Below, piece after piece: positions 1-63,994 of a DNA stretch of 64,000 nt. Position numbers and translations under genes: made by a program. A model generated the notes under the pieces. The model had not been told where the DNA came from. It worked only from the letters and a program-made list of their open reading frames with translations, and did not search any database. Position 1 is the stretch's first letter. Each line of letters opens with the position of its first letter. Source of the DNA: Candidatus Iainarchaeum sp. (GTDB lineage Archaea; Iainarchaeota; Iainarchaeia; Iainarchaeales; JAZDFD01); NCBI GenBank assembly GCA_043808155.1, contig JAZDFD010000026.1:19817-83816 (forward strand). The letters are read 5' to 3'.

Positions 1-1034
1 TCGTTACCCAATATAAATTTACCTTCGATGTAGCCTTTAGCATCATCAAGTTCGTTTTTGGTTATGTTGGATAATAATGAAATTTGTTTCATTATAATTC
101 TTATGGCTTTTGAAATATTACTTTTATCAGTATTAAGATAAATTGCAAAATAACTTGTGTCATTCATACGGTTAATTCTGATATTAACCTCGTATGCCAA
201 ACCGCGTTTATTTCTTATTTCTTCAACAATTTTTCCACTTCCACCTCTTGCTAATAATGCACGTATTACATCTAAAACATAGGTATCTTTGTGACTGCTT
301 CCTATTGTTTGATACCCTAAAATCAAATATGAATTTAATATTTTTCTTTGCTCAACAATTTTTCTAGGTTTTTTTTGTTTATATTCCGATATTTTAGTTT
401 TCATAGACATTTTTTTAGATGCTTTTGAAAATTTTTTGCTGACAAGAGAAATTGGGTTGTTCACATTTCCCACAATTGAAACAATCATATTGTTAGGCAC
501 ATAAAATTCATTAAAATAATCAAATAATTGTTTTTGAGTTATATTTAGAACATCTTCTTTTAGGCCTAAGATGTGATATTTTGCAGGATGTTTATTAAAA
601 AGTTTTTTCATAAAAAGCGACCACTGATAATCTCGGGGGTCATCACTCGCCATGTTTATTTCTTTTAAAATAACTTTTTTCTCTTTTTCAATTTTATCTT
701 CGTTAAAGGTTGGATTTTGGACTATGTCAGAAAGTATATCTAATGCAACTCGAAAGTGTTTCTTAGCAACTTTAATATAAAAACATGTTTTTTCATTTGA
801 CGTATAGGCATTAAATTCTCCGCCTAATTTTTCAATCTCATTTGCTATGGCTGTGCTAGTCTTTCTTTTTGTAGTGCCTTCAAATAACATATGTTCCATA
901 AAATGTGAAATTCCGCGTATTCCTTTTTTTTCATAATTAGACCCTACATTGACCAGTATTTGAATCGTAACTGAATCAGTGGCTTTTTTTAAAAAAACCA
1001 CTCTTAAGCCATTTTTGAGTTTTTTTGTTAGCAT
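1..1034 (-). CDS. M16 (pitrilysin/insulinase-like) zinc peptidase, N-terminal ~344 aa; C-terminus lies beyond the window start
   Basis: Not in the ORF track because it is open at the window edge. Own translation of the minus strand from ATG (1034-1032): MLTKKLKNGLRVVFLKKATDSVTIQILVNVGSNYEKKGIRGISHFMEHMLFEGTTKRK... No stop down to base 1. HFMEH is the inverted HxxEH zinc motif of M16 peptidases. Confidence 0.75.
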   Translation of the reverse strand, partial: MLTKKLKNGLRVVFLKKATDSVTIQILVNVGSNYEKKGIRGISHFMEHMLFEGTTKRKTSTAIANEIEKLGGEFNAYTSNEKTCFYIKVAKKHFRVALDILSDIVQNPTFNEDKIEKEKKVILKEINMASDDPRDYQWSLFMKKLFNKHPAKYHILGLKEDVLNITQKQLFDYFNEFYVPNNMIVSIVGNVNNPISLVSKKFSKASKKMSMKTKISEYKQKKPRKIVEQRKILNSYLILGYQTIGSSHKDTYVLDVIRALLARGGSGKIVEEIRNKRGLAYEVNIRINRMNDTSYFAIYLNTDKSNISKAIRIIMKQISLLSNITKNELDDAKGYIEGKFILGN

Positions 1035-1969: not shown

Positions 1970-3202
1970 TTAAACCATGTTTACGCAGCTTCCACCTATG
2001 CATTGCAACCCTTCACTGCAAGGCACATCTTCTATACAGGTTTCGCAGTCTTCACCAGTATCTACTGTACCGTTTCCGCAAAGAGTGATTTCTGTACATG
2101 TACCTTCAGTACATTCATAACCTTCTTCGCATGTTACATCTTCCGCACAAGTAGAGCAGTCTTCACCGTCATCAATCTCTGAATTTCCGCAAAGATTTAT
2201 TTCAGTGCATGCCCCATCTGAACATTCAAAACCTTCTTCGCATATTACATCGTCAGGACATGTTGAACAATTTTCATTTTCATCTATTTCAGAGTTACCA
2301 CAAAGACCCTCTTGGTTTTCTTCCTGGTTTTCTTCTTGGTTTTGCTGGTCTTCACCCTGATTTTCTTCCTGATTCTGTTCCTGATTTTCTTCCTGATTTG
2401 GTTCCTTGAGTGTCAGCAGTTTAATAACTGGTTTAAGTTTCCAGTCCCCATTGCCTGTTTGCATTAATGATTTGTCCACAAGGAAATCAATCAGAAGTTC
2501 TGTTGTTTCTCCTTCACCAACATAAAATCCATGATTGAATCTCAAAGTGTTTGAAGGAATTGTAACTTCAATTTCTTCTGGTGTGGTCTCTTCTATTTCC
2601 TCAGTTGTAGTGTCTTCTTCAGTTCCTGAATTTCCGTTGTTTCCATTTCCTGAATTTCCATTGTCATTTGGAGCTTCTAAGTTTGCAGTGTCCTCTTTTA
2701 ATGTAAGAGTTGCTTTTACAATGTCTAATCTTAACATTGTGTAATGTCCGGTTTCAAGTATATTTTCTCCGAACAAAGTTGAAACATCCTGCAACTGAAG
2801 CAAATCAAAAGTTTGCTCTTCTTCTGAAATTGTGAACCACTCACCGCCTGTTTTGTGCGCTTCCAATTTTGAAAAGGTTATGTTTAGTGTTTCAATCTCA
2901 TCAGTTGGCAAATCTTTTAGGTAAATCGCCAAATTACCTGTTGTGCCTTCAGGTGCAACTGATTCTTCTGAAGCTTCTTCTGCAGTTTCTTCAGTAGCTT
3001 CCTGTTCAGGTGCTTGTTCTATTTGTTGTTCCAGTTCTGTTTCAGTTTCTGGTTCATTTTCTGTTTCTGCCCCAATGTCTGTTCCATTATCTATTTGAGT
3101 ATTTGTTCCATTGTCTGAATTTATATTATCAGTATCTGGCTGAGTACAGCCACTAATAATCAAAATAAGCAAAACAAATGAAACAATCAAAAATTTCTTC
3201 AC
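1970..3202 (-). CDS. secreted lipoprotein: DUF4382-like domain, E/Q/N-rich linker, three C-terminal Cys-rich modules
   Basis: N-terminus MKKFLIVSFVLLILIISGC (signal peptide plus lipobox Cys). Central region (GNLAIYLKDLP...FDLLQLQD...GHYTMLRLDI...WKLKPVIKL) resembles DUF4382 as I recall it. C-terminal repeats are described in the next feature. Confidence 0.7.
   Translation of the reverse strand: MKKFLIVSFVLLILIISGCTQPDTDNINSDNGTNTQIDNGTDIGAETENEPETETELEQQIEQAPEQEATEETAEEASEESVAPEGTTGNLAIYLKDLPTDEIETLNITFSKLEAHKTGGEWFTISEEEQTFDLLQLQDVSTLFGENILETGHYTMLRLDIVKATLTLKEDTANLEAPNDNGNSGNGNNGNSGTEEDTTTEEIEETTPEEIEVTIPSNTLRFNHGFYVGEGETTELLIDFLVDKSLMQTGNGDWKLKPVIKLLTLKEPNQEENQEQNQEENQGEDQQNQEENQEENQEGLCGNSEIDENENCSTCPDDVICEEGFECSDGACTEINLCGNSEIDDGEDCSTCAEDVTCEEGYECTEGTCTEITLCGNGTVDTGEDCETCIEDVPCSEGLQCIGGSCVNMV
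1973..2305 (-). repeat. three tandem 37-aa Cys-rich modules (111 nt each) inside the lipoprotein gene
   Basis: LCGNSEIDENENCSTCPDDVICEEGFECSDGACTEIN / LCGNSEIDDGEDCSTCAEDVTCEEGYECTEGTCTEIT / LCGNGTVDTGEDCETCIEDVPCSEGLQCIGGSCVNMV. An ENQ low-complexity stretch lies immediately upstream (2306-2400). Confidence 0.85.
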
Positions 3203-3281
3203 ATTATCTCCTCCCTAAGACTAATTTATATAACTTATATATAACTAATCAAATATAAAGATTACTCTTCTTTATCCATCT

Positions 3282-3836
3282 ATGAAAAATGATGTGTTAG
3301 ATGCGATTTATAAAAGACGCTCTGTAAGAAAATATTCTGAAAAAGAAGTCTCTGAAGAAATTGTAAAAGAACTAATTAATGCAGGTATAATGGCCCCCTC
3401 TGCAAGAAACACACAGCCATGGAATTTCAGCATTGTTCAGGGCAAAGAAAAAATAAAAGAATTTTCAGATAAAGCACTTGAACAGAGAAAAATACTTGGA
3501 AAAATAATTGGCGGAAGTTTCAAAGTAATGGGTCTGGGTTCATTATTTTACAATGCACCTCTGCTTATTTTCATTTCGGGAAAAAGCGATTACTCTTATC
3601 TGAAAGATGATGTGAATTTAGCAGTTCAGAATATGTTTTTGGCTGCATATTCATTAGGTTTGGGCAGCTGCTGGATTGGGATGGCAAAAGACTTAAACAA
3701 AAATAAAAGTGCAAAAAAAGAACTCGGAATTCCTGCTGATTTTGAAATTGTTGCACCACTAATTTTTGGTTATCCTGAAGGAAACGAAAAAGAAACGCCA
3801 AAACGCGAACCTAAAATCTTAAAGTGGATTAAATAA
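3282..3836 (+). CDS. nitroreductase family protein
   Basis: 184 aa. RRSVRKY near the N-terminus, APSARNTQPW, and SCWIG are typical nitroreductase-fold motifs. Confidence 0.8.
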   Translation: MKNDVLDAIYKRRSVRKYSEKEVSEEIVKELINAGIMAPSARNTQPWNFSIVQGKEKIKEFSDKALEQRKILGKIIGGSFKVMGLGSLFYNAPLLIFISGKSDYSYLKDDVNLAVQNMFLAAYSLGLGSCWIGMAKDLNKNKSAKKELGIPADFEIVAPLIFGYPEGNEKETPKREPKILKWIK

Positions 3837-35830: not shown

Positions 35831-36067
35831 ATGAATGTAAATCTTGGAATCCCTTATGAAGCAATTGTAAACAAAGCTATAGACAAGGGTTATGCAGGCA
35901 ATCAAACAGAAGTTATAAGACAAGCCCTGCTTGCTTATGATAGAATACTGGAAGAAGAGGAAAAAGAACTTGTTGCCAAGGCAATTAAAATAGAAATGAG
36001 TGAAGTAAAAGCAGGTAACATTAAAACAAAATCTTTTGATGCAATGAAAAAAAAGTTCAAGTGGTAA
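35831..36067 (+). CDS. ribbon-helix-helix antitoxin (TA pair 1)
   Basis: 78 aa. N-terminal RHH pattern (NLGIPYEAIVNKAIDKGYAGNQTEVIRQALL). The stop is 1 nt before the toxin start. Confidence 0.65.
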   Translation: MNVNLGIPYEAIVNKAIDKGYAGNQTEVIRQALLAYDRILEEEEKELVAKAIKIEMSEVKAGNIKTKSFDAMKKKFKW

Positions 36068-36068
36068 A

Positions 36069-36329
36069 ATGGAAGTAAAGATTCTTGAAACCGCTGAAAA
36101 AGAGCTTGAAAAAATAGTTAACCCCCTAAACAAGCAGTTCGGAAAACATATTGAAAAAATTGCTTCAAATGAAACAAGCAGACACCTGAAACATGGTTTG
36201 CAGTATTTCACCGAAAATGTTACAAAACAGGCTAGAATTGTTTACTATTTTGAGGAAAAAACTATTTATGTAATGCACTGCTTCAAAAACCACAAAGAAT
36301 ACGAAAGATGGTATAAATCATTTAAATAA
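36069..36329 (+). CDS. RelE/ParE-superfamily-like toxin (TA pair 1)
   Basis: 86 aa. RHLKHGLQYF and NHKEYERWYKSF are shared with the second toxin at 42116-42379. Size and genetic coupling fit a type II toxin. Confidence 0.65.
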   Translation: MEVKILETAEKELEKIVNPLNKQFGKHIEKIASNETSRHLKHGLQYFTENVTKQARIVYYFEEKTIYVMHCFKNHKEYERWYKSFK

Positions 36330-36380: not shown

Positions 36381-36442
36381 ATAATGCGAACGACGTGAGC
36401 AAGTGCTACCGAAGGTGCACACGCACTCGCCGGGCGCTCGGC
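36381..36442 (+). ncRNA. structured 5' leader of tRNA-Leu (L1): ATAATGCGA ... CGCCG-GGCGCT-CGGC(G) hairpin abutting tRNA position +1
   Basis: GC-rich in an AT-rich region. It starts with the same 9-mer (ATAATGCGA) and ends with the same hairpin as the leader of tRNA-Ala (63758-63825). Hairpin at 36428-36443. Confidence 0.45.
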
Positions 36443-36612
36443 GCACGGGTACCGAAGTGGTTAAACGGGACAGACTCAAAAAAACTTTTAGAAAAAGTTT
36501 TAGCAAAAGAAACTTTTCAGAAAAGTTTCATCAAAACTAAAGCTTTATCTTTATTGAATTTGAGAGATCTGTTGGCTTAGTGCCTCCGTAGGTTCGAATC
36601 CTGCCCCGTGCA
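36443..36612 (+). tRNA. tRNA-Leu(CAA), class II, with an 86-nt intron at the canonical 37/38 position (intron about 36481-36566)
   Basis: Hand-folded. Acceptor GCACGGG/CCCGTGC, anticodon stem ACAGA/TCTGT, loop CTCAAA|..|A, 15-nt variable arm, T arm GTAGG-TTCGAAT-CCTGC, discriminator A. The intron 3' end TTTGAG pairs with CTCAAA. No encoded CCA. Confidence 0.85.
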
Positions 36613-36709
36613 TAGCCGGTTTCGTCCGGCTGTACCGAGATATGTGCACTGTTGCTTTGTGCAACAGCGCAGTAATATTTTTCGGAAACTGTGTCATAGC
36701 AAAAAGCGT
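36613..36709 (+). ncRNA. conserved structured tRNA trailer module, copy T1
   Basis: UUCG-capped hairpin 36614-36631, the 12-mer CCGAGATATGTG at 36635-36646, hairpin GCACTGTTGC/GCAACAGCGC, GTAATAT, and TCGG closing on CCGA. About 87% identical to 63899-63994, with compensatory stem changes. Confidence 0.55.
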
Positions 36710-36775
36710 ACCCGATTTCTGCTTAGCAGAAATGGGCGCATTTCATCAGAGCTGAAATAGCGTGGCACCCGTACT

Positions 36776-36809
36776 CGCCGGACGTGACGGCGGAATCCTG
36801 CCCTGTACA
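36776..36809 (+). other. leader-type hairpin (L3) fused to a remnant of a tRNA 3' end
   Basis: CGCCG-GACGTGA-CGGCG is followed by GAATCCTGCCCTGTACA. That matches the tRNA-Leu 3' end GAATCCTGCCCCGTGCA (36596-36612) at 15 of 17 positions. No complete cloverleaf can be folded. Confidence 0.4.
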
Positions 36810-36939: not shown

Positions 36940-37383
36940 ATGCCTGCGAAAAGACCAAAGTACATCTCAAAATTTAGTGCAAGAAGGCGAAGAGCTAATA
37001 CTGAAGCAAGAAAACAATTTCCGGAATGCGGAACCAAAGATGAAACATTTCAAATATTCCGCAATGCTTATCATGCGATAATTCTCGCTGAGGAATTCGG
37101 GGGGCTTAATTCTCCTGCAGTCAGAACAAAACTTCGTTTTATCCATCCAGAGGAACGCCTGCTTCTCCGAAAATATATCGCTAAAACAACCCGTGACCCA
37201 ATTCAGCGGCGGATTGTTTGGGAACTTTTAAAGCTTGAGAAAGAGCGTGGCAGATATATTTATCCTGACTTCCCAGAAGTGAAACTAACCAGACCGGAAA
37301 TTAATGCACTTAAAAAAGCACAGGCAGAAATTAATGAACATAAAAAGAAAAAGACTTCCACGCTTAAATTTAAAAGCAGATAA
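36940..37383 (+). CDS. hypothetical basic protein (orphan)
   Basis: ORF; I prefer ATG 36940 (MPAKRPKYISKF...) over the GTG at 36928. Its last ~20 nt belong to the duplicated cassette 37363-37432. Confidence 0.5.
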   Translation: MPAKRPKYISKFSARRRRANTEARKQFPECGTKDETFQIFRNAYHAIILAEEFGGLNSPAVRTKLRFIHPEERLLLRKYIAKTTRDPIQRRIVWELLKLEKERGRYIYPDFPEVKLTRPEINALKKAQAEINEHKKKKTSTLKFKSR

Positions 37384-37432
37384 AGCGTATTCTATGCATG
37401 AGAAAAATATTTTTACTTTTGATAATTTCTTT
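37363..37432 (+). repeat. 70-nt exact direct repeat, copy 1 (3' end of the upstream ORF, intergenic region, and signal-peptide start of a lipoprotein gene)
   Basis: CTTAAATTTAAAAGCAGATAAAGCGTATTCTATGCATGAGAAAAATATTTTTACTTTTGATAATTTCTTT is identical at 38720-38789. Weaker similarity continues about 60 nt further. Confidence 0.9.
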
Positions 37433-38624
37433 ATTGATTTTTGGATGTGTTGAAAATAATCTTCCTGGGAATGGAAGCGCAGATGATACGGATAATTTCA
37501 TGAATGATGCGGATAATTTGGATAATGGGGCAAATGAAAATACAAATAACATTGGGGATGAAAAAATTAAATCTGATGATTTGCAGGATACTCCAAGTGG
37601 GGATGGGATTTCTGAAGATGAAACCCAGGACGAGGATATTCAAAAATCTGCGTTAATACAATTGAACGAATTCGATATGTTAGACCAATACAAAAAGGAA
37701 TTTGTAAGAGATTTTGATATTCTTGAATGCCAGAGCAAAACTTATTTTACAGATGCCAGCATCACTGAGGTTATTGATTGGTATTATTCTGATCTGCCTT
37801 ATACCTTAGTTTCAAAAGATGTTTTTAATCCCCCAGAAAATCCGGATGTTGAAATAGGGTATCTCGTTTTTAAAAAAGAAAATACAGGAATATATATAGA
37901 TGTGCAGCCGGCTGAAACAATTCCTATAGCTACAGGCAAAACCTTAATCATCTATGCTGAATGCCCATGGGCTATGCTTAAGGAAGTGGTTGGTGATGTC
38001 AGCGGAGAGCTTGGTGTTGAAGGAGACATTGACTGGTCAGACGCTTATGTTTTTGAGGATCCGGAAGCTGATTTCTGGAAAGGAAGCGGTTCACCACCGG
38101 AAATAATAAACTATCCGCCATCAGACATTCTGAAAATATATGTAAAGAATGATGACGCTTATCTTTATGTTAAATATGAAGTAGCAGGACAAATACCTGC
38201 ATTGCCATACAAATATGGTGAAGACACAATAAGGATATTTACATATTTTACGCTTATAGATAAGGATCAAAATCCAAGCACAGGAATTAAGAATGGGTAT
38301 ACTGGTGCTGACCTTGCATTGGATTTTTGGTTTGGTTCCCCTCCAGAAGCAAATGGCAAGATGTATTCATTAATCCAATATGCTTTTTATGATCCTGCAG
38401 GAGAAGAGGAGCTCGGCTCGTTCAATGATGGCGGAACTCTGATTGCAGGAGGATTAGGATATACTTATGTGGCATCAAAGTATAAACTTGCAGACCTGGG
38501 ATTGAAAAAAGGCGATACCATCAATATTTTCCCTTTGATTGAAGTAGAAAGTGATTCCTACCATCACTTTGCCAGGGATGTATACAAAAAAGATGTTGAA
38601 TGGACTTCCATAAACATAAAGTAA
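37398..38624 (+). CDS. lipoprotein, function unknown
   Basis: MRKIFLLLIISLLIFGC lipobox; 408 aa; acidic N-terminal linker. Confidence 0.65.
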   Translation: MRKIFLLLIISLLIFGCVENNLPGNGSADDTDNFMNDADNLDNGANENTNNIGDEKIKSDDLQDTPSGDGISEDETQDEDIQKSALIQLNEFDMLDQYKKEFVRDFDILECQSKTYFTDASITEVIDWYYSDLPYTLVSKDVFNPPENPDVEIGYLVFKKENTGIYIDVQPAETIPIATGKTLIIYAECPWAMLKEVVGDVSGELGVEGDIDWSDAYVFEDPEADFWKGSGSPPEIINYPPSDILKIYVKNDDAYLYVKYEVAGQIPALPYKYGEDTIRIFTYFTLIDKDQNPSTGIKNGYTGADLALDFWFGSPPEANGKMYSLIQYAFYDPAGEEELGSFNDGGTLIAGGLGYTYVASKYKLADLGLKKGDTINIFPLIEVESDSYHHFARDVYKKDVEWTSINIK

Positions 38625-38719: not shown

Positions 38720-38789
38720 CTTAAATTTAAAAGCAGATAAAGCGTATTCTATGCATGAGAAAAATATTTTTACTTTTGATAATTTCTTT
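38720..38789 (+). repeat. 70-nt exact direct repeat, copy 2
   Basis: Identical to 37363-37432. It supplies the 5' UTR and the first 12 codons of the 38755 gene. Confidence 0.9.
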
Positions 38790-40062
38790 GTTAATTTTGG
38801 GGTGTGCAAACAACAACCTGCCTGCAAATGAAAGCACAGATGATAATAATGGTTTAGATGTGCCTGATAACACTCAGGACACAACAGATACAGAACCTGA
38901 TGAAGTAATTCCTGATGTAGAACCAGTGCCTAATATTTTTATTGATGCAAGTACTCCAAGCGGACCTTATAATGAAGGCGATGAATTTGATATTGAATAT
39001 ACTGTAGAAAATATTGGGGACACTATCAAAGGATACATTGTTAGTGTTTGTGAAAAAGCAGGATTTGAAGCAAAGTGCAGAACAAAAACAGTGAAAGATA
39101 TAGGCACTCATAATTCATCATTAGTTAATTGTGATTTTACGGAAGAAGATGCAATTTGCGATGAAGAAACATTAGGCACTAATGGAATATACACTTATTC
39201 AGTTTTAGTTTATGATTGTGCAGATTTAGAAGACGCAACTGACATGGACTGTTCAGAAGTGGAAAAATCTGCAATTCCTGAAAGTGTTGAACCATTAAAA
39301 ACATTTGAAAAAGAAATTGAAGTTGGCGGGGAATCAAATGATGATGAAGACTCTGATACGGATTCAGATAGTGGAACTACACAAGGTGCCATAACCGACT
39401 TCCGAACAATTGACCCAAACTGGAAATGTAATTTTATAATGGATTCAGAAGACCCAACAGATATTTGGAGATATTCAAAGTTAGATACAGATATTAGCAT
39501 TGCATGTGGTAAGGCAATCTTAATTCAGGAAACAGTAAATCAGCCTCTGAGACCAGTATATAATATTTCATTTAATTATAGTGATACTTTCTCCGCACAA
39601 TATGCAGGTAATGGTGAAATTATAATCAGTCACTTGGGAACTGCACAGTCTGCATTCAAAGATGTTTTAATTCATGAATTAACACACAGTGCATTAGACG
39701 AAATCCCATTGCCAGTCTGGTTTGAAGAAGGAATTGCCGAAAGAATGGTTGATTTAGTCAATGAGCAAGACACATCACTTTGGCGAGTTTACATAAAAGA
39801 TATTGAAACATTAGATCCTTTTGATACTGGTGATGGAGTAGATAATTCAATTAATTATCGATATGCAAATTATACTGTAAAGAAATTTGTTGAAAAATAC
39901 GGGTATGATGCATTAAGAGAGACTATTCAATTTGTTAAAGATGAACAGGAATGGGGAAACATAAACAAAAGAAACCAAGTTCTTGTTAATGCAGCAATTG
40001 ACGCCACTGGCGATTCTTCAATCACACTAGATAAATTAGCTTATCCAAAAAACTACGAATAA
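38755..40062 (+). CDS. lipoprotein with peptidase-MA-like HExxH ... WFEEG motif
   Basis: MRKIFLLLIISLLILGC lipobox. LIHELTHSAL followed by PVWFEEGIAERM matches the zinc-metallopeptidase MA-clan pattern. Confidence 0.65.
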   Translation: MRKIFLLLIISLLILGCANNNLPANESTDDNNGLDVPDNTQDTTDTEPDEVIPDVEPVPNIFIDASTPSGPYNEGDEFDIEYTVENIGDTIKGYIVSVCEKAGFEAKCRTKTVKDIGTHNSSLVNCDFTEEDAICDEETLGTNGIYTYSVLVYDCADLEDATDMDCSEVEKSAIPESVEPLKTFEKEIEVGGESNDDEDSDTDSDSGTTQGAITDFRTIDPNWKCNFIMDSEDPTDIWRYSKLDTDISIACGKAILIQETVNQPLRPVYNISFNYSDTFSAQYAGNGEIIISHLGTAQSAFKDVLIHELTHSALDEIPLPVWFEEGIAERMVDLVNEQDTSLWRVYIKDIETLDPFDTGDGVDNSINYRYANYTVKKFVEKYGYDALRETIQFVKDEQEWGNINKRNQVLVNAAIDATGDSSITLDKLAYPKNYE

Positions 40063-42643: not shown

Positions 42644-42706
42644 AAATAATCACCTATCATAATGATATACAAAGAAATATTTAAAGATATCGATTCAAAA
42701 ATAAAA

Positions 42707-42790
42707 CGCAAGGGACGAGATTCGAACTCGCGCTTCCCGAAGGAAACGGGCTTAGCAGGCCCGCGCATTAAACCACTCTGCCACCCTTGC
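42707..42790 (-). tRNA. tRNA-Ser(GCT), class II, no intron
   Basis: Minus strand reads GCAAGGG TG GCAGAGTGGTTTAATGC G CGGGC CTGCTAA GCCCG TTTCCTTCGGGAAG(C) GCGAG TTCGAAT CTCGT CCCTTGC G. Confidence 0.9.
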
Positions 42791-42798
42791 ACAACCCG

Positions 42799-42926
42799 AT
42801 TGCGTACGGGTACTCCGCGTGCCATTTTCAATGGCACTGTCATCATTTCTGATTGCGTAGATTGGATCCGCAATTCCGCAATGCAATATGTGTGAGTTTT
42901 CGTTTGACTCAAACCCACGATAATAT
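42799..42926 (+). ncRNA. GC-rich structured region: three-way-junction-like fold (42799-42882) plus the fourth copy of the core hairpin module (42886-42926)
   Basis: ATTGCG occurs twice (42799, 42852) and CGCAAT twice (42869, 42877), giving nested helices. There is a 7-bp hairpin GTGCCAT/ATGGCAC. ATATGTGTGAGTTTTCGTTTGACTCAAACCCACGATAATAT is about 85% identical to the tRNA-Glu intron core. The strand is assigned by homology and is antisense to the tRNA-Ser leader. Confidence 0.4.
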
Positions 42927-42968
42927 ATCATAAATTAGAGAAACTAATATAAAACGCGCCTAAGCTTA

Positions 42969-43277: not shown

Positions 43278-43335
43278 AATAGAAATTAAGTCATAGATGT
43301 ATTTAAAACTGTCGTTAAAAAACTAAAAAAAGAAA

Positions 43336-43407
43336 CGCCTTGGCCAGGATTCGGACCTGGGACCCTCCGGTTAACAGCCGAATGCTCTACCGCTAAGCTA
43401 CCAAGGC
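43336..43407 (-). tRNA. tRNA-Asn(GTT), with an unusual T-loop TCCGAAT
   Basis: Minus strand reads GCCTTGG TA GCTT AGCGGTA GAGC A TTCGG CTGTTAA CCGGA GGGTC CCAGG TCCGAAT CCTGG CCAAGGC G. TTTAAA lies 40 nt upstream and a T-run follows downstream. Confidence 0.85.
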
Positions 43408-43661
43408 AGAAAAAGTTTACAGAATAATTGTCGGTAAATTATTTAAAAGCACGTGTTGCATAAGCAATGAAAATATACATTAGAATGCAATGTTAAAACA
43501 CTCATTCCCCAGACTTATGAAATTCCATCTTTAAACACTGGTTTGCAAATCAAACCTGAAAAACCATATTCTGCACTTAATAAAGTTAAAAAAGCCCAGA
43601 TTACGCTTTTTTTCAATTTTTTTACTGGTTAAGGCACTTAACAATATGAATTTTGATAGTA

Positions 43662-53942: not shown

Positions 53943-54113
53943 GCCCCTGTAGTGTAGCGGCCAAGCATCCTGCCCTTTCAAACCCGCTTTCGAGCGGGTG
54001 GGCCGAGATATGTGTGTTATTTCGTTTTGACTCAATAACACGATAATATTTGAAATCATATCTTAGGCTTTCGAAGACAGGCGGTGACCCGGGTTCGAGT
54101 CCCGGCGGGGGCA
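53943..54113 (+). tRNA. tRNA-Glu(TTC) with a 98-nt intron at or near position 37/38 (about 53981-54078)
   Basis: Hand-folded. GCCCCTG TA GTGT AGCGGCCAA GCAT C CTGCC CTTTCA|intron|A GGCGG TGAC CCGGG TTCGAGT CCCGG CGGGGGC A. Exon CTTT pairs with intron GAAG, leaving a 3-nt ACA bulge at the 3' splice site (relaxed BHB). Confidence 0.85.
53983..54068 (+). ncRNA. conserved structured module, copy inside the tRNA-Glu intron
   Basis: CCCGCT-TTCG-AGCGGG hairpin (53983-53998), the 12-mer CCGAGATATGTG (54003-54014), hairpin GTGTTATT/AATAACAC, and CGATAATAT. Collinear with the tRNA-Leu and tRNA-Ala trailers. Confidence 0.55.
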
Positions 54114-54184: not shown

Positions 54185-55654
54185 CTAATTTTCAATTATT
54201 TTAATACTCACAAGAAATGGTGAGGAAGATGTTGTTGCTATTTTAACTGCCATGCGTTGCACATCGCCGCCGGTAACTTCGGGACCACCTGTGTATCTGA
54301 GTATGCCCCCGCCATCGTTAAAAAACTGCATTGCAGGCGGTGCATATCTTTCTTCATTTGTTATTGTACCCCCGCCATATCCAACTACAGTCTGTTTGTA
54401 TTCAACTCCATAAACCATATCCAATACAAAAACTCTTGGGGCATCTTTTAAAAGTAAAAATTCTCTTTTTTCACCAACAGAAAGTTTTTCATAACCACCT
54501 GAAATTAAATTCAAATATTCTGTTCTTTCTTTATAATTCGTGCCGCAACTTTGATATTCTATTTCTGATTCAGCAGGTTTTTCTGTTTCAGTTCCGCAGT
54601 CATTATTATCTGTACAGGTTCTTGTTCTTGTTCGTGACTGTTCTGAATTAACACATGTACTCCATGCACTCCATGAACTCCAGCCACTGCAGTCCCAATC
54701 TTCAGTACATGGTATCTCATCTAAACATTTAGTTGGGGCGCAACCAAATTCACAAACTTCAGAAGAGGCATAATCACAACTTCCGTCTGAACAGGAGCCA
54801 GTGAAATATCGTGTTTCATTATCACAATATGGTTCACAACTAATTCCTTCACATGGATCGCCCTTACAAGTTCCAGACTCACATCCGAATATACAATTTA
54901 CTTCAGTATATTCGCACACAGGAACTCCAGTTTCTGAATAGCAAACACCATTAATATTTTTTGTGCTTTCATCTTTGCATCCATCTTCGCATATCACGCC
55001 GTCACAGGGATCTGGATTACATAATGCATTTTCACAACCAAATTCACAATTTTCTGTTGAGTAAGTGCAAATAGCATTATTACATATCCCATCATATTTT
55101 CGATCATCAGTATTTATGCATTGATCTGGGTCGCAAACCACGCCCTGACAGGGATCCTCATTACATAAACCATCTGTACAGCCAATAACGCATTCTTTTG
55201 TATCGTAATCACATGAACCATCTACGGGATTGCAAACGCCATTATATTTTTGATTGTTGTCCACATCACATTCATTTTCACAAACTACAGTTTCACACAA
55301 ATCGGGTTCTGATTTGCATTCTCCATCTTCACAACCATAGTCGCAATCCATATCTTCATAATGACAAAAACCATCTAGTGGATTGCATTCACCGTCATAA
55401 TAGAGCGTATTCACGCCCGCACCACAATAATTACCTGTGCAGGTTACACCATCACAAAGGTCTTTAAGCTCAGGAAAAATATCGCCGCCGAAATCATCAT
55501 ATGCACTAATGATTTTATCCTCACCAGTTTCAGATGTGGATTTACCAAATCCGCCAAGATTAGCCATAATGGCAATTAAAATTGCAACAACCAGAAGCGC
55601 ACCTGCGATAAGCAACAGATATTCCATTGAGCCCTGTGCTTTTGAAAATTTCAT
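54185..55654 (-). CDS. pilin-like (class III signal peptide) surface protein with five Cys-rich repeats and a thrombospondin type-1-like repeat
   Basis: N-terminus MKFSKAQGSMEYLLLIAGALLVVAILIAIM has the archaeal type IV pilin signal QGSxEYLLL. Five ~50-aa C-x-GV-x-C repeats span aa 66-315. A TSR-like module spans aa 316-371. A C-terminal ~115-aa domain follows. Confidence 0.75.
   Translation of the reverse strand: MKFSKAQGSMEYLLLIAGALLVVAILIAIMANLGGFGKSTSETGEDKIISAYDDFGGDIFPELKDLCDGVTCTGNYCGAGVNTLYYDGECNPLDGFCHYEDMDCDYGCEDGECKSEPDLCETVVCENECDVDNNQKYNGVCNPVDGSCDYDTKECVIGCTDGLCNEDPCQGVVCDPDQCINTDDRKYDGICNNAICTYSTENCEFGCENALCNPDPCDGVICEDGCKDESTKNINGVCYSETGVPVCEYTEVNCIFGCESGTCKGDPCEGISCEPYCDNETRYFTGSCSDGSCDYASSEVCEFGCAPTKCLDEIPCTEDWDCSGWSSWSAWSTCVNSEQSRTRTRTCTDNNDCGTETEKPAESEIEYQSCGTNYKERTEYLNLISGGYEKLSVGEKREFLLLKDAPRVFVLDMVYGVEYKQTVVGYGGGTITNEERYAPPAMQFFNDGGGILRYTGGPEVTGGDVQRMAVKIATTSSSPFLVSIKIIEN
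54542..54709 (-). other. thrombospondin type-1 repeat-like module within the pilin-like protein
   Basis: CTEDWDCSGWSSWSAWSTCVNSEQSRTRTRTCTDNNDCGTETEKPAESEIEYQSCG contains WxxWxxW, RxRxR and six Cys. Confidence 0.6.
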
Positions 55655-55822
55655 GAAAGTATTACACTTTTGTTATTTAAAATGATTTCCATTCAAGCAA
55701 AAAAGACCCTAATCAGAGGCAGACACCTGTACTGGCAAATCCAAACTAATATAAATCAGAATAATGTTATAATTACAGTTAAATTGCAATAAATATTGCA
55801 AAAACTTAAAGGAGGTGAAACA

Positions 55823-56536
55823 ATGGATTTATTTTCAAAAAACGGATTGCTAGTGTTCGGGGTGTTTTTCATTGCAACAATGGCGATGGCATTTGTACTC
55901 ATGGACAGTTATGCACAGAGTAACTTGACTGGTCAAGGAATTCAAACAGGTTTCTATCCCAGCTCTGTTCCAGTGGAACCGCCAACTAAAGATTGTCCAA
56001 CTGGCATTTGGAATTTCTGTGGAACTGACGGAGACACCTGTGCTGCATATGAAGAGACATACGGTGGTGACAAAGCACAGGTATTTATAAAATGCGATGG
56101 CGGAAACCTGATCGAACAAAGATACGGATTTTACAAGTGTAACTTAAATCACAGACTAATGACGTTAAATCCGGTAAGTGAGAGATGTGAAAGATCTTGT
56201 GGACAATATGCAAAAATCACAGTATTAGAATACTGTGAAGGCGGCTGCAAAAGTGTAGATGGTGTAGCAGCATGTTTGGAGTATGGTCCGTGCTATGGTC
56301 TAGAAGGATATGACGGAAAATCCGGTATGTCACTGGTGGATCAGGCAAGATATCTTGCAGATATAGCAGTAAGAACAATGACAGGCGATCCTGGACAGCA
56401 GTGTCAGATGTACAACATCGTTTGGCCAGTATTCCTTGCAAATCCGACAGAACTTCTAAAAGTAGTAATGTTAACGGAATATAACTGTGACATAGTACCT
56501 GACAAATTGCCAGCAGATTGGAAGGACCCGTGTTAA
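55823..56536 (+). CDS. secreted or anchored Cys-rich protein
   Basis: GGAGGTGA Shine-Dalgarno 5 nt before ATG 55823. MDLFSKNGLLVFGVFFIATMAMAFVLM hydrophobic N-terminus. 16 Cys in the mature part. Confidence 0.6.
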   Translation: MDLFSKNGLLVFGVFFIATMAMAFVLMDSYAQSNLTGQGIQTGFYPSSVPVEPPTKDCPTGIWNFCGTDGDTCAAYEETYGGDKAQVFIKCDGGNLIEQRYGFYKCNLNHRLMTLNPVSERCERSCGQYAKITVLEYCEGGCKSVDGVAACLEYGPCYGLEGYDGKSGMSLVDQARYLADIAVRTMTGDPGQQCQMYNIVWPVFLANPTELLKVVMLTEYNCDIVPDKLPADWKDPC

Positions 56537-56633: not shown

Positions 56634-57350
56634 ATGAAAGACTGGTTTGGTATTGCATTGCTTTTATTGATTTTAGTTAGTGGCTGTACTACGCCAACTT
56701 ACCCTGTTAAGGAAGAACCAGAACCAGTTTGCGGAGATGCAATAACTTATGGTGTTGATGCACAAGGTGCATGCGCTGAATTTCCAACAACCTGTTTGCC
56801 TGAAGGTTACACTAAAGTTAATGAATGCATTAAAGTTTGCGAACCAAAATGCGATGATAAATGTCAGGGAACAACATTTCTCACTGAGGGTGAATGTGAA
56901 AACGGAGAATGCATTTACAAAAATGTTAAAGAAAATTCTTTTGAATGCGGTTATGAAAAAATATTTGACGGTGAAGTGACATTGCAATACTGCAATTATA
57001 ATGAATTTTTTGATAGATATAGTTTTTTCCTTTCAGTAAGAAGTACTGGTGAAATATTGGCAAAAGCAGGTTCAAGTGTTTGGTTGATGACTCCAGACAT
57101 TGATAAAACAAGTTACCAGCCAATTTCAAAAGAATATGCGCAGGGAATTTATTGGTGGCAGGATGTTTTTAGTGACAAACCATATAGGGGTCGAACATTT
57201 AACATCACAGGAGAAGAAGAATTCAAAGAATTTGATTATAAATTTATTTACTGCGAATTAGAAAATAATCTTTATGACAAATGTGATGAAGAAAAAGGTA
57301 TAATTTTGTACACTGGAAATACTGCAGATTGCAATATTGTCAAATATTAA
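56634..57350 (+). CDS. Cys-rich lipoprotein
   Basis: MKDWFGIALLLLILVSGC lipobox; 238 aa. Confidence 0.6.
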   Translation: MKDWFGIALLLLILVSGCTTPTYPVKEEPEPVCGDAITYGVDAQGACAEFPTTCLPEGYTKVNECIKVCEPKCDDKCQGTTFLTEGECENGECIYKNVKENSFECGYEKIFDGEVTLQYCNYNEFFDRYSFFLSVRSTGEILAKAGSSVWLMTPDIDKTSYQPISKEYAQGIYWWQDVFSDKPYRGRTFNITGEEEFKEFDYKFIYCELENNLYDKCDEEKGIILYTGNTADCNIVKY

Positions 57351-60614: not shown

Positions 60615-61397
60615 ATGGAAAAGAAATTAATTTTCGGGATTCTTGCTATTTTTGCAGTTGTTTTATTGAGCGGGTGCATTGAAGAAAAACCTCTTGCTAA
60701 TAACACAATAACGGACAATACGGTAACAGGAAATGAAAATGTTTCAATGGATTTTTCTTCGGAGCCTTGCAGTGAGGATGTGGACGCTTATGACCCCTCA
60801 ATTCCAAAAGTTATAGAAAAAAATTGGGAGGATAATTCAACATTAAAAGTCCGGGCTTATGTGAGGACCAACTGTGCGGAGGATGTTCTTAACGGGGATT
60901 TCAAAATTGAGGAAAATAAAATAACTTTAGTCTACGAGGCTTCAGATTGCATGGAAACCGAAATGGGCTGTGCGGAATGCGACTGCGTGCATGAAATAAA
61001 TTACACGTTCAGCAACATTGCAAAGAAAGAGTATGAATTTGAGATTGAAAAGAGTTATGAGCCCGCAAATGAAAATGTCCGGATGGATTTTTATGCTGAG
61101 CCCTGCGATCAAGACATAAACCCCTACGACGAATCAATTCCCAGGGTGCTTGAAACTAACTGGGCAAATAATTCAACTTTGGAAGTGATGGTACGTGTTG
61201 CAATAAATTGCGCAGAAAGCATTTTGAGCGGGGATTTTGAGATTGAAGGAAATAAAATAATTTTGAGTTATGAATCAACTTATTGCGGGGATAACGAAGA
61301 AGGCTGTACTCTGTGCAACTGCGCGCATGATTTGATTTACACATTTACGAATATTGCAAAGAAAGAGTATGAATTTGAGATTAGTGAGATAAGCTAA
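60615..61397 (+). CDS. lipoprotein built from two tandem ~110-aa Cys-containing repeats
   Basis: MEKKLIFGILAIFAVVLLSGC lipobox. ATG 60615 is preferred; the track start at 60387 overlaps the upstream gene. Confidence 0.65.
   Translation: MEKKLIFGILAIFAVVLLSGCIEEKPLANNTITDNTVTGNENVSMDFSSEPCSEDVDAYDPSIPKVIEKNWEDNSTLKVRAYVRTNCAEDVLNGDFKIEENKITLVYEASDCMETEMGCAECDCVHEINYTFSNIAKKEYEFEIEKSYEPANENVRMDFYAEPCDQDINPYDESIPRVLETNWANNSTLEVMVRVAINCAESILSGDFEIEGNKIILSYESTYCGDNEEGCTLCNCAHDLIYTFTNIAKKEYEFEISEIS
60732..61394 (+). repeat. intragenic tandem duplication, period 336 nt (60732-61067 and 61068-61394)
   Basis: NENVSMDFSSEPC...NIAKKEYEFEI versus NENVRMDFYAEPC...NIAKKEYEFEI. The two copies share an identical 30-mer ATTGCAAAGAAAGAGTATGAATTTGAGATT near their ends. 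Confidence 0.85.
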
Positions 61398-63726: not shown

Positions 63727-63757
63727 GACCAAAAAAATGACTCGCGGAACACCCGTG

Positions 63758-63825
63758 ATAATGCGAGCACAAAAGTGCGAGCCAGTCCCACTACAGGTGG
63801 GACCCGCACCCGCCGGGCGTTCGGC
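63758..63825 (+). ncRNA. structured 5' leader of spacer tRNA-Ala (L2)
   Basis: Starts with ATAATGCGA. Contains hairpins GCAC-AAAA-GTGC and GTCCCAC-TACAG-GTGGGAC. Ends with CGCCG-GGCGTT-CGGC(G) (63811-63826), whose last G is tRNA position +1. Confidence 0.45.
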
Positions 63826-63898
63826 GGGCTCGTAGCTCAGTTGGTAGAGCGCTGCCCTTGCACGGCAGAGGCCACGGGTTCGAATCCCGTCGAGTCCA
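63826..63898 (+). tRNA. tRNA-Ala(TGC) in the 16S-23S spacer
   Basis: GGGCTCG TA GCTC AGTTGGTA GAGC G CTGCC CTTGCAC GGCAG AGGCC ACGGG TTCGAAT CCCGT CGAGTCC A. The G3:U70 identity pair is present. Confidence 0.92.
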
Positions 63899-63994
63899 AG
63901 TCCGGTTTCGACCGGACGTACCGAGATATGTGCACTGTTGCTTTGGCAACAGCGCGGTAATATATTTCGGAAACCGTGCCACAGCACAAAGCGT
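63899..63994 (+). ncRNA. conserved structured tRNA trailer module, copy T2
   Basis: GTCCGGT-TTCG-ACCGGAC (63900-63917), CCGAGATATGTG (63921-63932), the GCACTGTTGC/GCAACAGCGC hairpin, and GTAATAT..TCGG. Collinear with 36613-36709. Confidence 0.55.

Follow-up and report, generated by a model that had tools for sequence, protein, structure and literature searches.

The window analysed in this work is the whole 64-kb stretch (64,000 nt) of contig JAZDFD010000026.1, from a low-GC DPANN archaeon of the Candidatus Diapherotrites lineage (GC content of the window 35%). A UbiA protein and the TyrRS encoded nearby matched proteins of a 'Candidatus Diapherotrites archaeon' metagenome-assembled genome at NCBI with 100% identity. 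Five tRNA genes (Leu, Ser, Asn, Glu and Ala) were identified in the window with cmscan and the intron-aware program ARAGORN. The window also contained about eight units of a structured module of approximately 70 nt, termed M, each of which was associated with a tRNA gene. One copy of M lies inside the intron of tRNA-Glu and is homologous to copies that follow the 3' ends of tRNA-Leu and tRNA-Ala. The tRNA genes are given first.

36443–36612, plus strand: tRNA-Leu(CAA), with an 86-nt AT-rich intron of a family other than M (cmscan, ARAGORN)
42706–42791, minus strand: tRNA-Ser
43335–43408, minus strand: tRNA-Asn, the only tRNA gene of the window without an M unit
53943–54113, plus strand: tRNA-Glu(UUC), with a 98-nt intron at position 37/38
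63826–63898, plus strand: tRNA-Ala(UGC), in the 16S–23S spacer, after the 16S rRNA gene

Five M units were detected by covariance models (T1, T2, the intron copy, A and B) and contacted four of the five tRNA genes. Three further antisense M-like units were recognized only through alignment and synteny, and no additional copy was found in the window at E<0.1 in the covariance-model search. These units and the repeat associated with them were located as follows.

36383–36442, minus strand: leader of tRNA-Leu, a decayed antisense M-like unit with P1 beside the tRNA 5' end (alignment)
36611–36681, plus strand: T1, an M(+) copy abutting the discriminator base of tRNA-Leu (model R1, 87.9 bits)
36613–36792, plus strand: 180-nt insert with a copy of the tRNA-Leu 3' end on either side, a doublet of M(+), hairpin region X and an antisense M-like unit
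36700–36792, minus strand: antisense M-like unit at the right end of the T1 insert, subfamily b with P1 CGCCG..CGGCG (alignment; homologous to the leaders of L035 and L036)
36793–36809, plus strand: direct repeat GAATCCTGCCCTGTACA, which copies tRNA-Leu positions 57–73 (36596–36612, GAATCCTGCCCCGTGCA; 15/17 identical)
42791–42848, plus strand: decayed copy A, adjoining tRNA-Ser (minus strand) at its 5' end, with the core of the 12-mer deleted (R1 27.7 bits, R2 22 bits)
42861–42929, plus strand: decayed copy B (R1 28 bits, R2 23.8 bits), with P3 loop and tail like those of the intron copy (24 nt, 87.5%)
53979–54052, plus strand: M(+) inside the tRNA-Glu intron (R1 84.8 bits; R2 64 bits, E 8e-20)
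63745–63825, minus strand: leader of tRNA-Ala, a diverged antisense M-like unit that shows 91% identity with the tRNA-Leu leader in its last 22 nt
63897–63966, plus strand: T2, an M(+) copy abutting tRNA-Ala (R1 86.1 bits); similarity to T1 runs to at least 63994 and the right end lies beyond the window

In module M, a P1 hairpin with a UUUCG loop is joined by a 3-nt linker to the 12-mer CCGAGAUAUGUG, which is followed by a P3 hairpin of variable sequence and then by the tail CGRUAAUAU. In the three collinear window copies P1 was a 7-bp hairpin with a UUCG loop, beginning 1–3 nt past a CA dinucleotide, and the exact 12-mer CCGAGATATGTG occurred three times in the window (36635, 54003 and 63921), on the plus strand only. 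A preliminary description of this DNA, made from the letters alone, had proposed that the tRNA-Glu intron is a homologue of the two tRNA trailers. All of the features that it listed were found where it had placed them, and the homology was confirmed with covariance model R2, which was built from four non-intron copies only (T1, T2 and two from another metagenome-assembled genome, MAG): R2 found the window intron with 64 bits and the orthologous introns of L030 and L029 with 60 and 50 bits, respectively.

Among nine distinct copies, 94.7% of the stem cells were paired and double (compensatory) changes were present in 12 of the 15 pairs; none of 500 shuffles reached these values and slid controls paired 25–51%. 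The nine-copy alignment was fitted to the model, and an independent check with a MAFFT alignment of seven copies gave 93.3% pairing and double changes in 10 of the 15 pairs. Both hairpins were preserved through compensatory change, and the 12-mer, the P1 loop and the tail were invariant while both stems co-varied. Since the intron was found by R2 (E 8e-20) and the stems pair and co-vary, the similarity was not limited to the 12-mer; such a limitation would have undone the proposed homology.

Neither strand was favoured by the distribution of G·U and A·C cells in the stems. No Rfam family corresponded to M, either when the window and the loci were searched at the gathering threshold or when the T1 region and L002 were searched with relaxed E-values, and over the T1 region no match was obtained even at E up to 5. 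C boxes (RUGAUGA) and D boxes (CUGA) were absent from the M sequence, and readings of M as a C/D, H/ACA or K-turn RNA were rejected on inspection for absence of the boxes. A conserved peptide starting from an ATG within the 12-mer was likewise rejected, as the reading frames were not conserved.

The copy in tRNA-Glu occupied most of an intron for which the following parts, all on the plus strand, could be assigned.

53943–53980: 5' exon of tRNA-Glu(UUC), ending at A37 (cmscan, ARAGORN); identical or near-identical in L030 and L029
53981–54078: intron of 98 nt at the canonical position 37/38 (cmscan, ARAGORN, consensus fold of three orthologues)
53982–53999: P1, with CCCGCT-TTCG-AGCGGG at 53983–53998
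54003–54014: 12-mer
54014–54041: P3, GTGTTATT/AATAACAC
54041–54049: tail, CGATAATAT
54052–54062: GAAAT/CATATC after the tail
54057–54078: 3' adaptor of the intron, kept in L029 and L030
54079–54113: 3' exon of tRNA-Glu (cmscan, ARAGORN)

The insert was reported as a 100-nt insertion in the anticodon loop by cmscan and as a 98-nt intron by ARAGORN. A single consensus fold, with the anticodon stem, an ACA bulge and a 4-bp helix, was common to the three orthologous pre-tRNA-Glu sequences. The central 4-bp helix is formed by GAAG (54073–54076) and the anticodon-loop UUUC/CUUU, and ACA (54077–54079) is the 3' bulge. The 12-mer and the linker pair in this three-orthologue fold with CAUAUCUU-A-GGYY near the intron 3' end, the adaptor pairing of the window copy being CAUAUCUU-A-GGCU with GGCC-GAGAUAUG of the module. 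The 5' cleavage site falls in a 2–3-nt loop of a three-way junction (with P1 and P2') that leads straight into P1, and not before an inner helix. No motif was returned over the tRNA-Glu intron by a strict scanner for bulge–helix–bulge (BHB) structures. On the modelled fold, the splice sites are a relaxed BHB closed by a three-way junction, in agreement with an earlier remark to that effect.

It had also been considered that the tRNA-Glu gene might be an unspliced pseudogene, and this was not borne out. The spliced sequence was called as tRNA-Glu(ttc) by ARAGORN, with the canonical cloverleaf restored, the exons were conserved in three genomes, and two U·G stem pairs were C-G in the relatives, a change that improves the stems; because of this conservation and this call the gene looks, by sequence, functional and not pseudogene-like. 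The orthologous introns of L029 and L030 retained M with compensatory changes, including double compensatory substitutions in P3 among intron copies of relatives that are 91% identical in the neighbouring protein.

Comparison of tRNA-Glu genes between related genomes, which had been suggested as a check, thus gave M-bearing introns in L029 and L030, and an unrelated intron in L032, a more distant member of the Diapherotrites. The latter intron, also at 37/38, is AT-rich, 78 nt in length and without similarity to M. It resembles the tRNA-Leu intron of the window clade (Smith–Waterman score 48, against 20.9 +/- 3.8 for shuffles; 0/2000). The AT-rich intron family, CTTTTCTTT.GAAAAGAAAAGCT.TA.CAAAAGAAA, was observed at 36480–36567 in the window, at ~2377–2474 in L033, at ~1376–1450 in L035 and at 534–686 (minus strand) in L032. 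Homologous introns in several tRNA genes were therefore found for the AT-rich family (Leu and Glu), whereas M occurred as an intron in tRNA-Glu only. At the level of sequence similarity, this family is independent evidence of intron sequence moving between different tRNA genes; as the L032 intron is unlike M and like the tRNA-Leu intron, intron content would have been exchanged between tRNA genes in the phylum and the body of the Glu intron replaced.

Across the window, the units were arranged as M(-)/tRNA-Leu/M(+)-X-M(-)/tRNA-Leu fragment and M(-)/tRNA-Ala/M(+), with two antisense units 5' of tRNA-Ser and M(+) within tRNA-Glu. The P1 end always faced the tRNA, the typical pattern being M(-)/tRNA/M(+), and roughly half of the units ran antisense to the tRNA beside them. 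A 22-nt motif that is the antisense of M was common to the GC-rich leaders of the Leu and Ala tRNA genes. At the position of the tRNA-Leu leader, L036 had a recognizable minus-strand M (34.6 bits) whose plus-strand reading, ...CACATATATCCGCACTCGCCGGGCGTGACG, is the leader motif. Alignment of the M(+) copies with the reverse-complemented leaders of the window, with the L035 leader and with the right end of the T1 insert showed all four to be homologous through P1 and the linker into the first part of the 12-mer.

T1 and T2 started 1–3 nt past the discriminator base of tRNA-Leu and tRNA-Ala, respectively, and were 89% identical over 94 nt, P3 included, which suggests, as far as sequence identity can indicate it, recent copying or gene conversion. 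CA preceded every M(+) copy, those at non-tRNA sites included, and represents either a target preference or a part of the element. CCA was encoded by none of the five window tRNA genes; the three tRNAs with a sense module at or after their processing site either terminate in CA or are cut behind it, whereas the discriminator is G in tRNA-Asn and tRNA-Ser.

The flanks of T1 and T2 were also inspected for BHB motifs, as had been proposed, and none was convincing. The strict scan around the non-intron copies gave minimal matches with 3-bp helices only, at a similar, background rate on both strands and in controls. The two halves of the T1 insert paired with z = -2.3. The 17-nt repeat of tRNA-Leu that bounds this insert starts in the T-loop and is exact in L033, and the DNA between the repeats (63–180 nt) was without coding capacity.

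Further copies were sought with a strict pattern, in which the exact 12-mer was required, in 185,579 reference genomes and in metagenome data. Three were found, all in one other MAG (CAZILS01; loci L001 and L002; GC content 49%). The metagenome scan gave L029, the orthologous tRNA-Glu intron, as its sole genuine match, the two others being due to chance. Look-ups by synteny added the orthologous intron of L030 and the copies of L035 and L036. The true distribution of M is underestimated by the genome and metagenome scans, since both required the exact 12-mer. No M was detected in 42 kb of L032 and L034 (~48–61% identity). A relaxed pattern gave 24 matches in viral contigs, all of which were rejected as chance matches without hairpins.

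The copies in the other MAG were flanked by duplicated sequence, and there were no tRNA genes in L001 or L002. In L001, a 71-nt M was enclosed by a pair of exact 32-nt repeats at 801–832 and 904–935 (extending to 35 nt if one mismatch is allowed). The repeats correspond to the last 11 codons and the stop codon of rtcB, which is encoded on the opposite strand, and the downstream one of the two is the functional gene end. L002 had two tandem 100-nt units bounded by three copies of the 14-nt sequence CCCTCAGTCCGCCC, which in reverse complement is the 3'-terminal part of a C/D box sRNA-like gene, with its guide end, box D and terminal stem. P1 of T1 and P1 of L002 were identical at 18/18 positions, in genomes 14 GC points apart (35% and 49%). 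The proposal that the function of the module requires physical linkage to a tRNA is not supported by these copies at the 3' ends of rtcB and of the sRNA-like gene, with no tRNA nearby.

The C/D box sRNA-like gene of L002 (7309–7376, minus strand) reads GCCC-GAUGAUGA...CUGA...CGAUGACGA...CUGA-GGG and had weak Rfam matches to the archaeal sR2, sR1 and sR3, all under the gathering scores. The L034 locus, without module copies, carried a DDE_Tnp_IS240 transposase gene (2609–3736, minus strand).

The position of M varied between close relatives (78–91% protein identity). The tRNA-Leu trailer, which is 180 nt with an intact M in the window, was reduced in L033 (TyrRS 85%) to 63 nt with a decayed M that lacked the 12-mer and P3, and the trailer of L035 (79%) opened as in L033. 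The copy at the T1 position was decayed in both of these relatives and tRNA-Leu was retained. L035 had an intact M(+)-X'-M(-) doublet upstream of tRNA-Leu, located directly behind the stop codon of tyrS, whereas the doublet of the window is downstream. The tRNA-Leu leader of L033 contained a minus-strand M-like unit with X hairpins in the P3 position; in the window X is downstream of tRNA-Leu. The 5' flank of tRNA-Glu was empty in the window and in L030, whereas L037 had a leader unit of at least 95 nt after the same promoter. Overall, copies of M ranged from intact to decayed.

The preliminary picture of an element that moves between tRNA contexts is supported by this variation in position. 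Its description as intron-like is not, the non-Glu copies not being introns, and dependence on the tRNA is likewise disfavoured by the antisense leader copies and by a tRNA-Leu trailer copy that decayed in two relatives while the tRNA was kept. As the non-Glu copies are not introns, some copies are antisense or lie away from tRNA genes and the L032 intron at 37/38 is unrelated, M probably entered or replaced a pre-existing intron rather than being the mobile intron itself. The intron position in tRNA-Glu probably pre-dated M, because an intron unrelated to M occupies this site in the distant relative.

On balance, we favour the reading that M is a structured interspersed repeat of Candidatus Diapherotrites, comparable to repetitive extragenic palindromic (REP) sequences, their REPIN doublets and bacterial interspersed mosaic elements (BIMEs), or to miniature inverted-repeat transposable elements (MITEs), that became lodged in a site from which it can be removed by splicing. 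This reading is based on the presence of multiple copies in both orientations, the co-occurrence of intact and decayed copies, the positional turnover, the target duplications and the presence of M in a compositionally different genome. M would spread, or be copied, between sites at the DNA level, through insertion with target duplication and/or gene conversion, and insertions would persist where they are harmless. The mirror-image placement could be explained by the self-complementarity of the acceptor stem, owing to which the start and the end of a tRNA gene resemble each other when read from opposite strands. The 37/38 intron of tRNA-Glu would be a harmless site because the splicing endonuclease and the RtcB ligase would remove the insert, the 3' adaptor of the intron pairing with the 12-mer and the anticodon loop to present the relaxed BHB. 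The invariant 12-mer and tail may be read by a putative trans-acting factor, either a mobilizing enzyme or a host RNA- or DNA-binding protein.

Several observations weigh against this reading. Scanning of 30 of the 43 window open reading frames (ORFs) of at least 180 aa against Pfam revealed no transposase, integrase, reverse transcriptase or Cas1, and the strict pattern occurred in just one of the 185,579 reference genomes and in one metagenome contig (L029). The single units of L001 and L002 had unrelated ends, without the terminal inverted repeats of a MITE, imperfect inverted ends being seen in the T1 doublet only. The target duplications (14, 17 and 32–35 nt) had no fixed length and matched no known transposition mechanism. 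As the 17-nt tRNA-Leu repeat is common to L033, where it surrounds different content, it is older than the present insert and may derive from an earlier integration event and not from M. Finally, the 12-mer and tail are perfectly conserved and vertically inherited intron copies show compensatory change, a combination that points to purifying selection on M and is also compatible with a host function.

A host function is the substance of the alternative that survives best, which we regard as tentative but viable, and which does not exclude a repeat. M would then be an RNA domain co-transcribed with stable RNAs and released by processing, its 5' end set by RNase Z or the splicing endonuclease, and would act as a protein-binding or chaperone element or as a small RNA whose biogenesis makes use of tRNA maturation, like that of the C/D box sRNAs in tRNA-Trp introns, the copies being paralogous genes. 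This agrees with the invariant 12-mer, P1 loop and tail beside co-varying stems, with conservation across genomes of 35% and 49% GC and with the intron copies kept in three lineages with double compensatory substitutions in P3. It also agrees with the start of M(+), always 1–3 nt past a processing site or gene end and preceded by CA, and with the position of M behind a gene of the same orientation, as seen for T1, T2, the intron, L001 and L035. However, copies decay beside intact tRNAs (A, B and the L033 and L035 trailers), some half of the units run antisense to the tRNA next to them and copies are flanked by target duplications; there is also no Rfam match and no C/D or H/ACA box, and the G·U and A·C cells favour neither strand.

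A bolder form of the repeat reading, which we consider doubtful, would make M an active, non-autonomous mobile element of DPANN archaea that passes through a structured RNA or a single-stranded DNA intermediate. It would target the ends and loops of stable RNA genes and make unusually long duplications of variable size (14–35 nt) by a new mechanism, a Cas1/casposase-like or RNA-templated process being a candidate. If this were true, tRNA introns could be created, and their content replaced, directly by insertion into an anticodon loop and the subsequent gain of a short adaptor with which a BHB is built.

It appears improbable that the units are processing stems, in which an antisense leader unit and a sense trailer unit form a long helix around the tRNA (and the 23S rRNA) that is cut by the splicing endonuclease, in the manner of archaeal pre-rRNA. 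The inverted M(-)/tRNA/M(+) arrangement at tRNA-Leu and tRNA-Ala and the M copy in the 16S–23S spacer are as such a model would have them, the tRNA-Leu leader–trailer duplex slightly exceeded shuffles (z = -2.1, 16/500), and the minimum-energy fold lengthened the acceptor stem by 4 bp past a 3-nt AUA bulge. Yet no excess complementarity was seen at tRNA-Ala (z = -0.26) or in L033 (z = +1.7), and the compensatory changes keep the local P1 and P3 hairpins and not a leader–trailer duplex. In addition, the window leader units lack a complement of the 12-mer, and a crude BHB scan yielded minimal-quality matches at background frequency.

Transposition of a mobile BHB intron between tRNAs at the RNA level, by splicing and reverse splicing, as entertained in the preliminary description, is highly improbable for M. 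The module does occur both in an intron and beside tRNAs, an AT-rich intron family is common to the tRNA-Leu introns of the clade and a distant tRNA-Glu intron, and there is a precedent from Thermoproteales in the literature (PMC4033280). The tRNA-Glu copy is, however, the only intron; trailers, leaders and non-tRNA copies have no bounding BHB, and reverse splicing of RNA would not be expected to yield antisense copies or target duplications at the DNA level. Chance resemblance through the 12-mer, for which it may be said that three 12-mer matches with up to 2 mismatches arose in 28 of 100 shuffles and that the relaxed pattern matched viral contigs by chance only, is refuted by three exact, same-strand matches within collinear hairpins, the R2 E-value and the co-varying stems.

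Compared with known systems, M is like REP, REPIN and BIME sequences in being a short imperfect palindrome of conserved structure that is multi-copy and extragenic, often lies just 3' of genes, forms clusters of alternating orientation and long-hairpin doublets (cf. the M(+)-X-M(-) T1 insert), and is represented by intact copies beside decayed ones. It differs from them in being archaeal, in having two hairpins and an invariant single-stranded 12-mer, in lacking a GTAG head and an accompanying RAYT (IS200-like TnpA) gene in the scanned window ORFs, and in its strong bias to the ends of tRNA and sRNA genes, its tRNA-intron copy and its long target duplications, which REPs lack. Like MITEs and casposon-like insertions, M would be non-autonomous and is multi-copy, with target-site duplications flanking the copies, and the 14–17-nt duplications at tRNA and sRNA 3' ends may be likened to those of casposons. 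In contrast, single units of M are without terminal inverted repeats, the duplications range from 14 to 35 nt, and no transposase or Cas1 was found in the scanned window ORFs.

A structured module in a long intron at the canonical position, or in a tRNA co-transcript, is also known from the C/D box sRNA of the euryarchaeal tRNA-Trp intron and from tRNA-linked C/D sRNAs; M, unlike these, has no C, D, C' or D' boxes, K-turn or Rfam match, and its copies are often antisense or decayed. According to work from 2010 summarized in PMC4033280, similar sequences occur in introns of different tRNA species in Thermoproteales, implying intron movement. The AT-rich family in tRNA-Leu and tRNA-Glu introns, and M in an intron and in tRNA flanks, are comparable to this, whereas M differs in being mostly non-intronic, in both orientations, associated with DNA-level duplications, from a DPANN archaeon and at the canonical intron position. 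Integration of mobile elements into archaeal tRNA genes leaves tRNA fragments, as in the Caldiarchaeum model (PMC3293823), and an integration hypothesis of Randau and Soll is cited in PMC4033280. The tRNA-Leu 3' fragment that starts in the T-loop and is duplicated downstream of the gene, the insertions at an anticodon loop and at 3' ends, which are classical integrase sublocations, and the duplicated 3' ends of protein and sRNA genes are reminiscent of integration. Integrated elements, on the other hand, are unlike these inserts of only 63–180 nt with no recombinase, in which one small module recurs at unrelated targets. M is accordingly best described as a structured repeat of DPANN archaea that colonizes tRNA flanks and an intron, REP-like in a descriptive sense, without the GTAG head of REPs and, among the scanned window ORFs, without a RAYT gene.

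The origin and turnover of archaeal tRNA introns is an old question, for which prior evidence consisted mainly of intron similarity in Thermoproteales and of one recombinase-bearing insertion. The present locus links a single repeat family to the body of a canonical intron, to mirrored leaders and trailers, to an rRNA spacer and to fresh non-tRNA insertions with duplications elsewhere. If the favoured reading of M as an interspersed repeat is right, archaeal tRNA introns can take their sequence from repeats with the behaviour of a small mobile element, and intron gain via small mobile repeats becomes checkable. M is, moreover, an uncatalogued RNA or DNA structure, without an Rfam match, whose invariant 12-mer some factor must presumably read.

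Additional features were noted in the vicinity of the module copies. Two adjacent ORFs (78 and 86 aa; 35831–36329) between tyrS and tRNA-Leu were judged by eye to be a candidate antitoxin/toxin pair; counterparts (87 and 86 aa) were present in L033 and none in L035, where the M doublet directly follows tyrS. A homologue search with the 151-aa ORF adjoining T1 matched only the query itself. The region 3' of tRNA-Glu (54185–56536) contained two genes for Cys-rich secreted proteins (489 and 246 aa) that were missing in L030 (91% identity), in which the orthologue of the gene at 56634–57350 comes straight after tRNA-Glu. Direct repeats with 88% identity (37363–37488 and 38720–38845) covered the regions encoding the N-terminal signal peptides of two neighbouring secreted proteins that are paralogues, and a 73% internal domain duplication (60886–61046 and 61222–61382) was present in a 336-aa Cys-rich protein encoded upstream of the rRNA operon.

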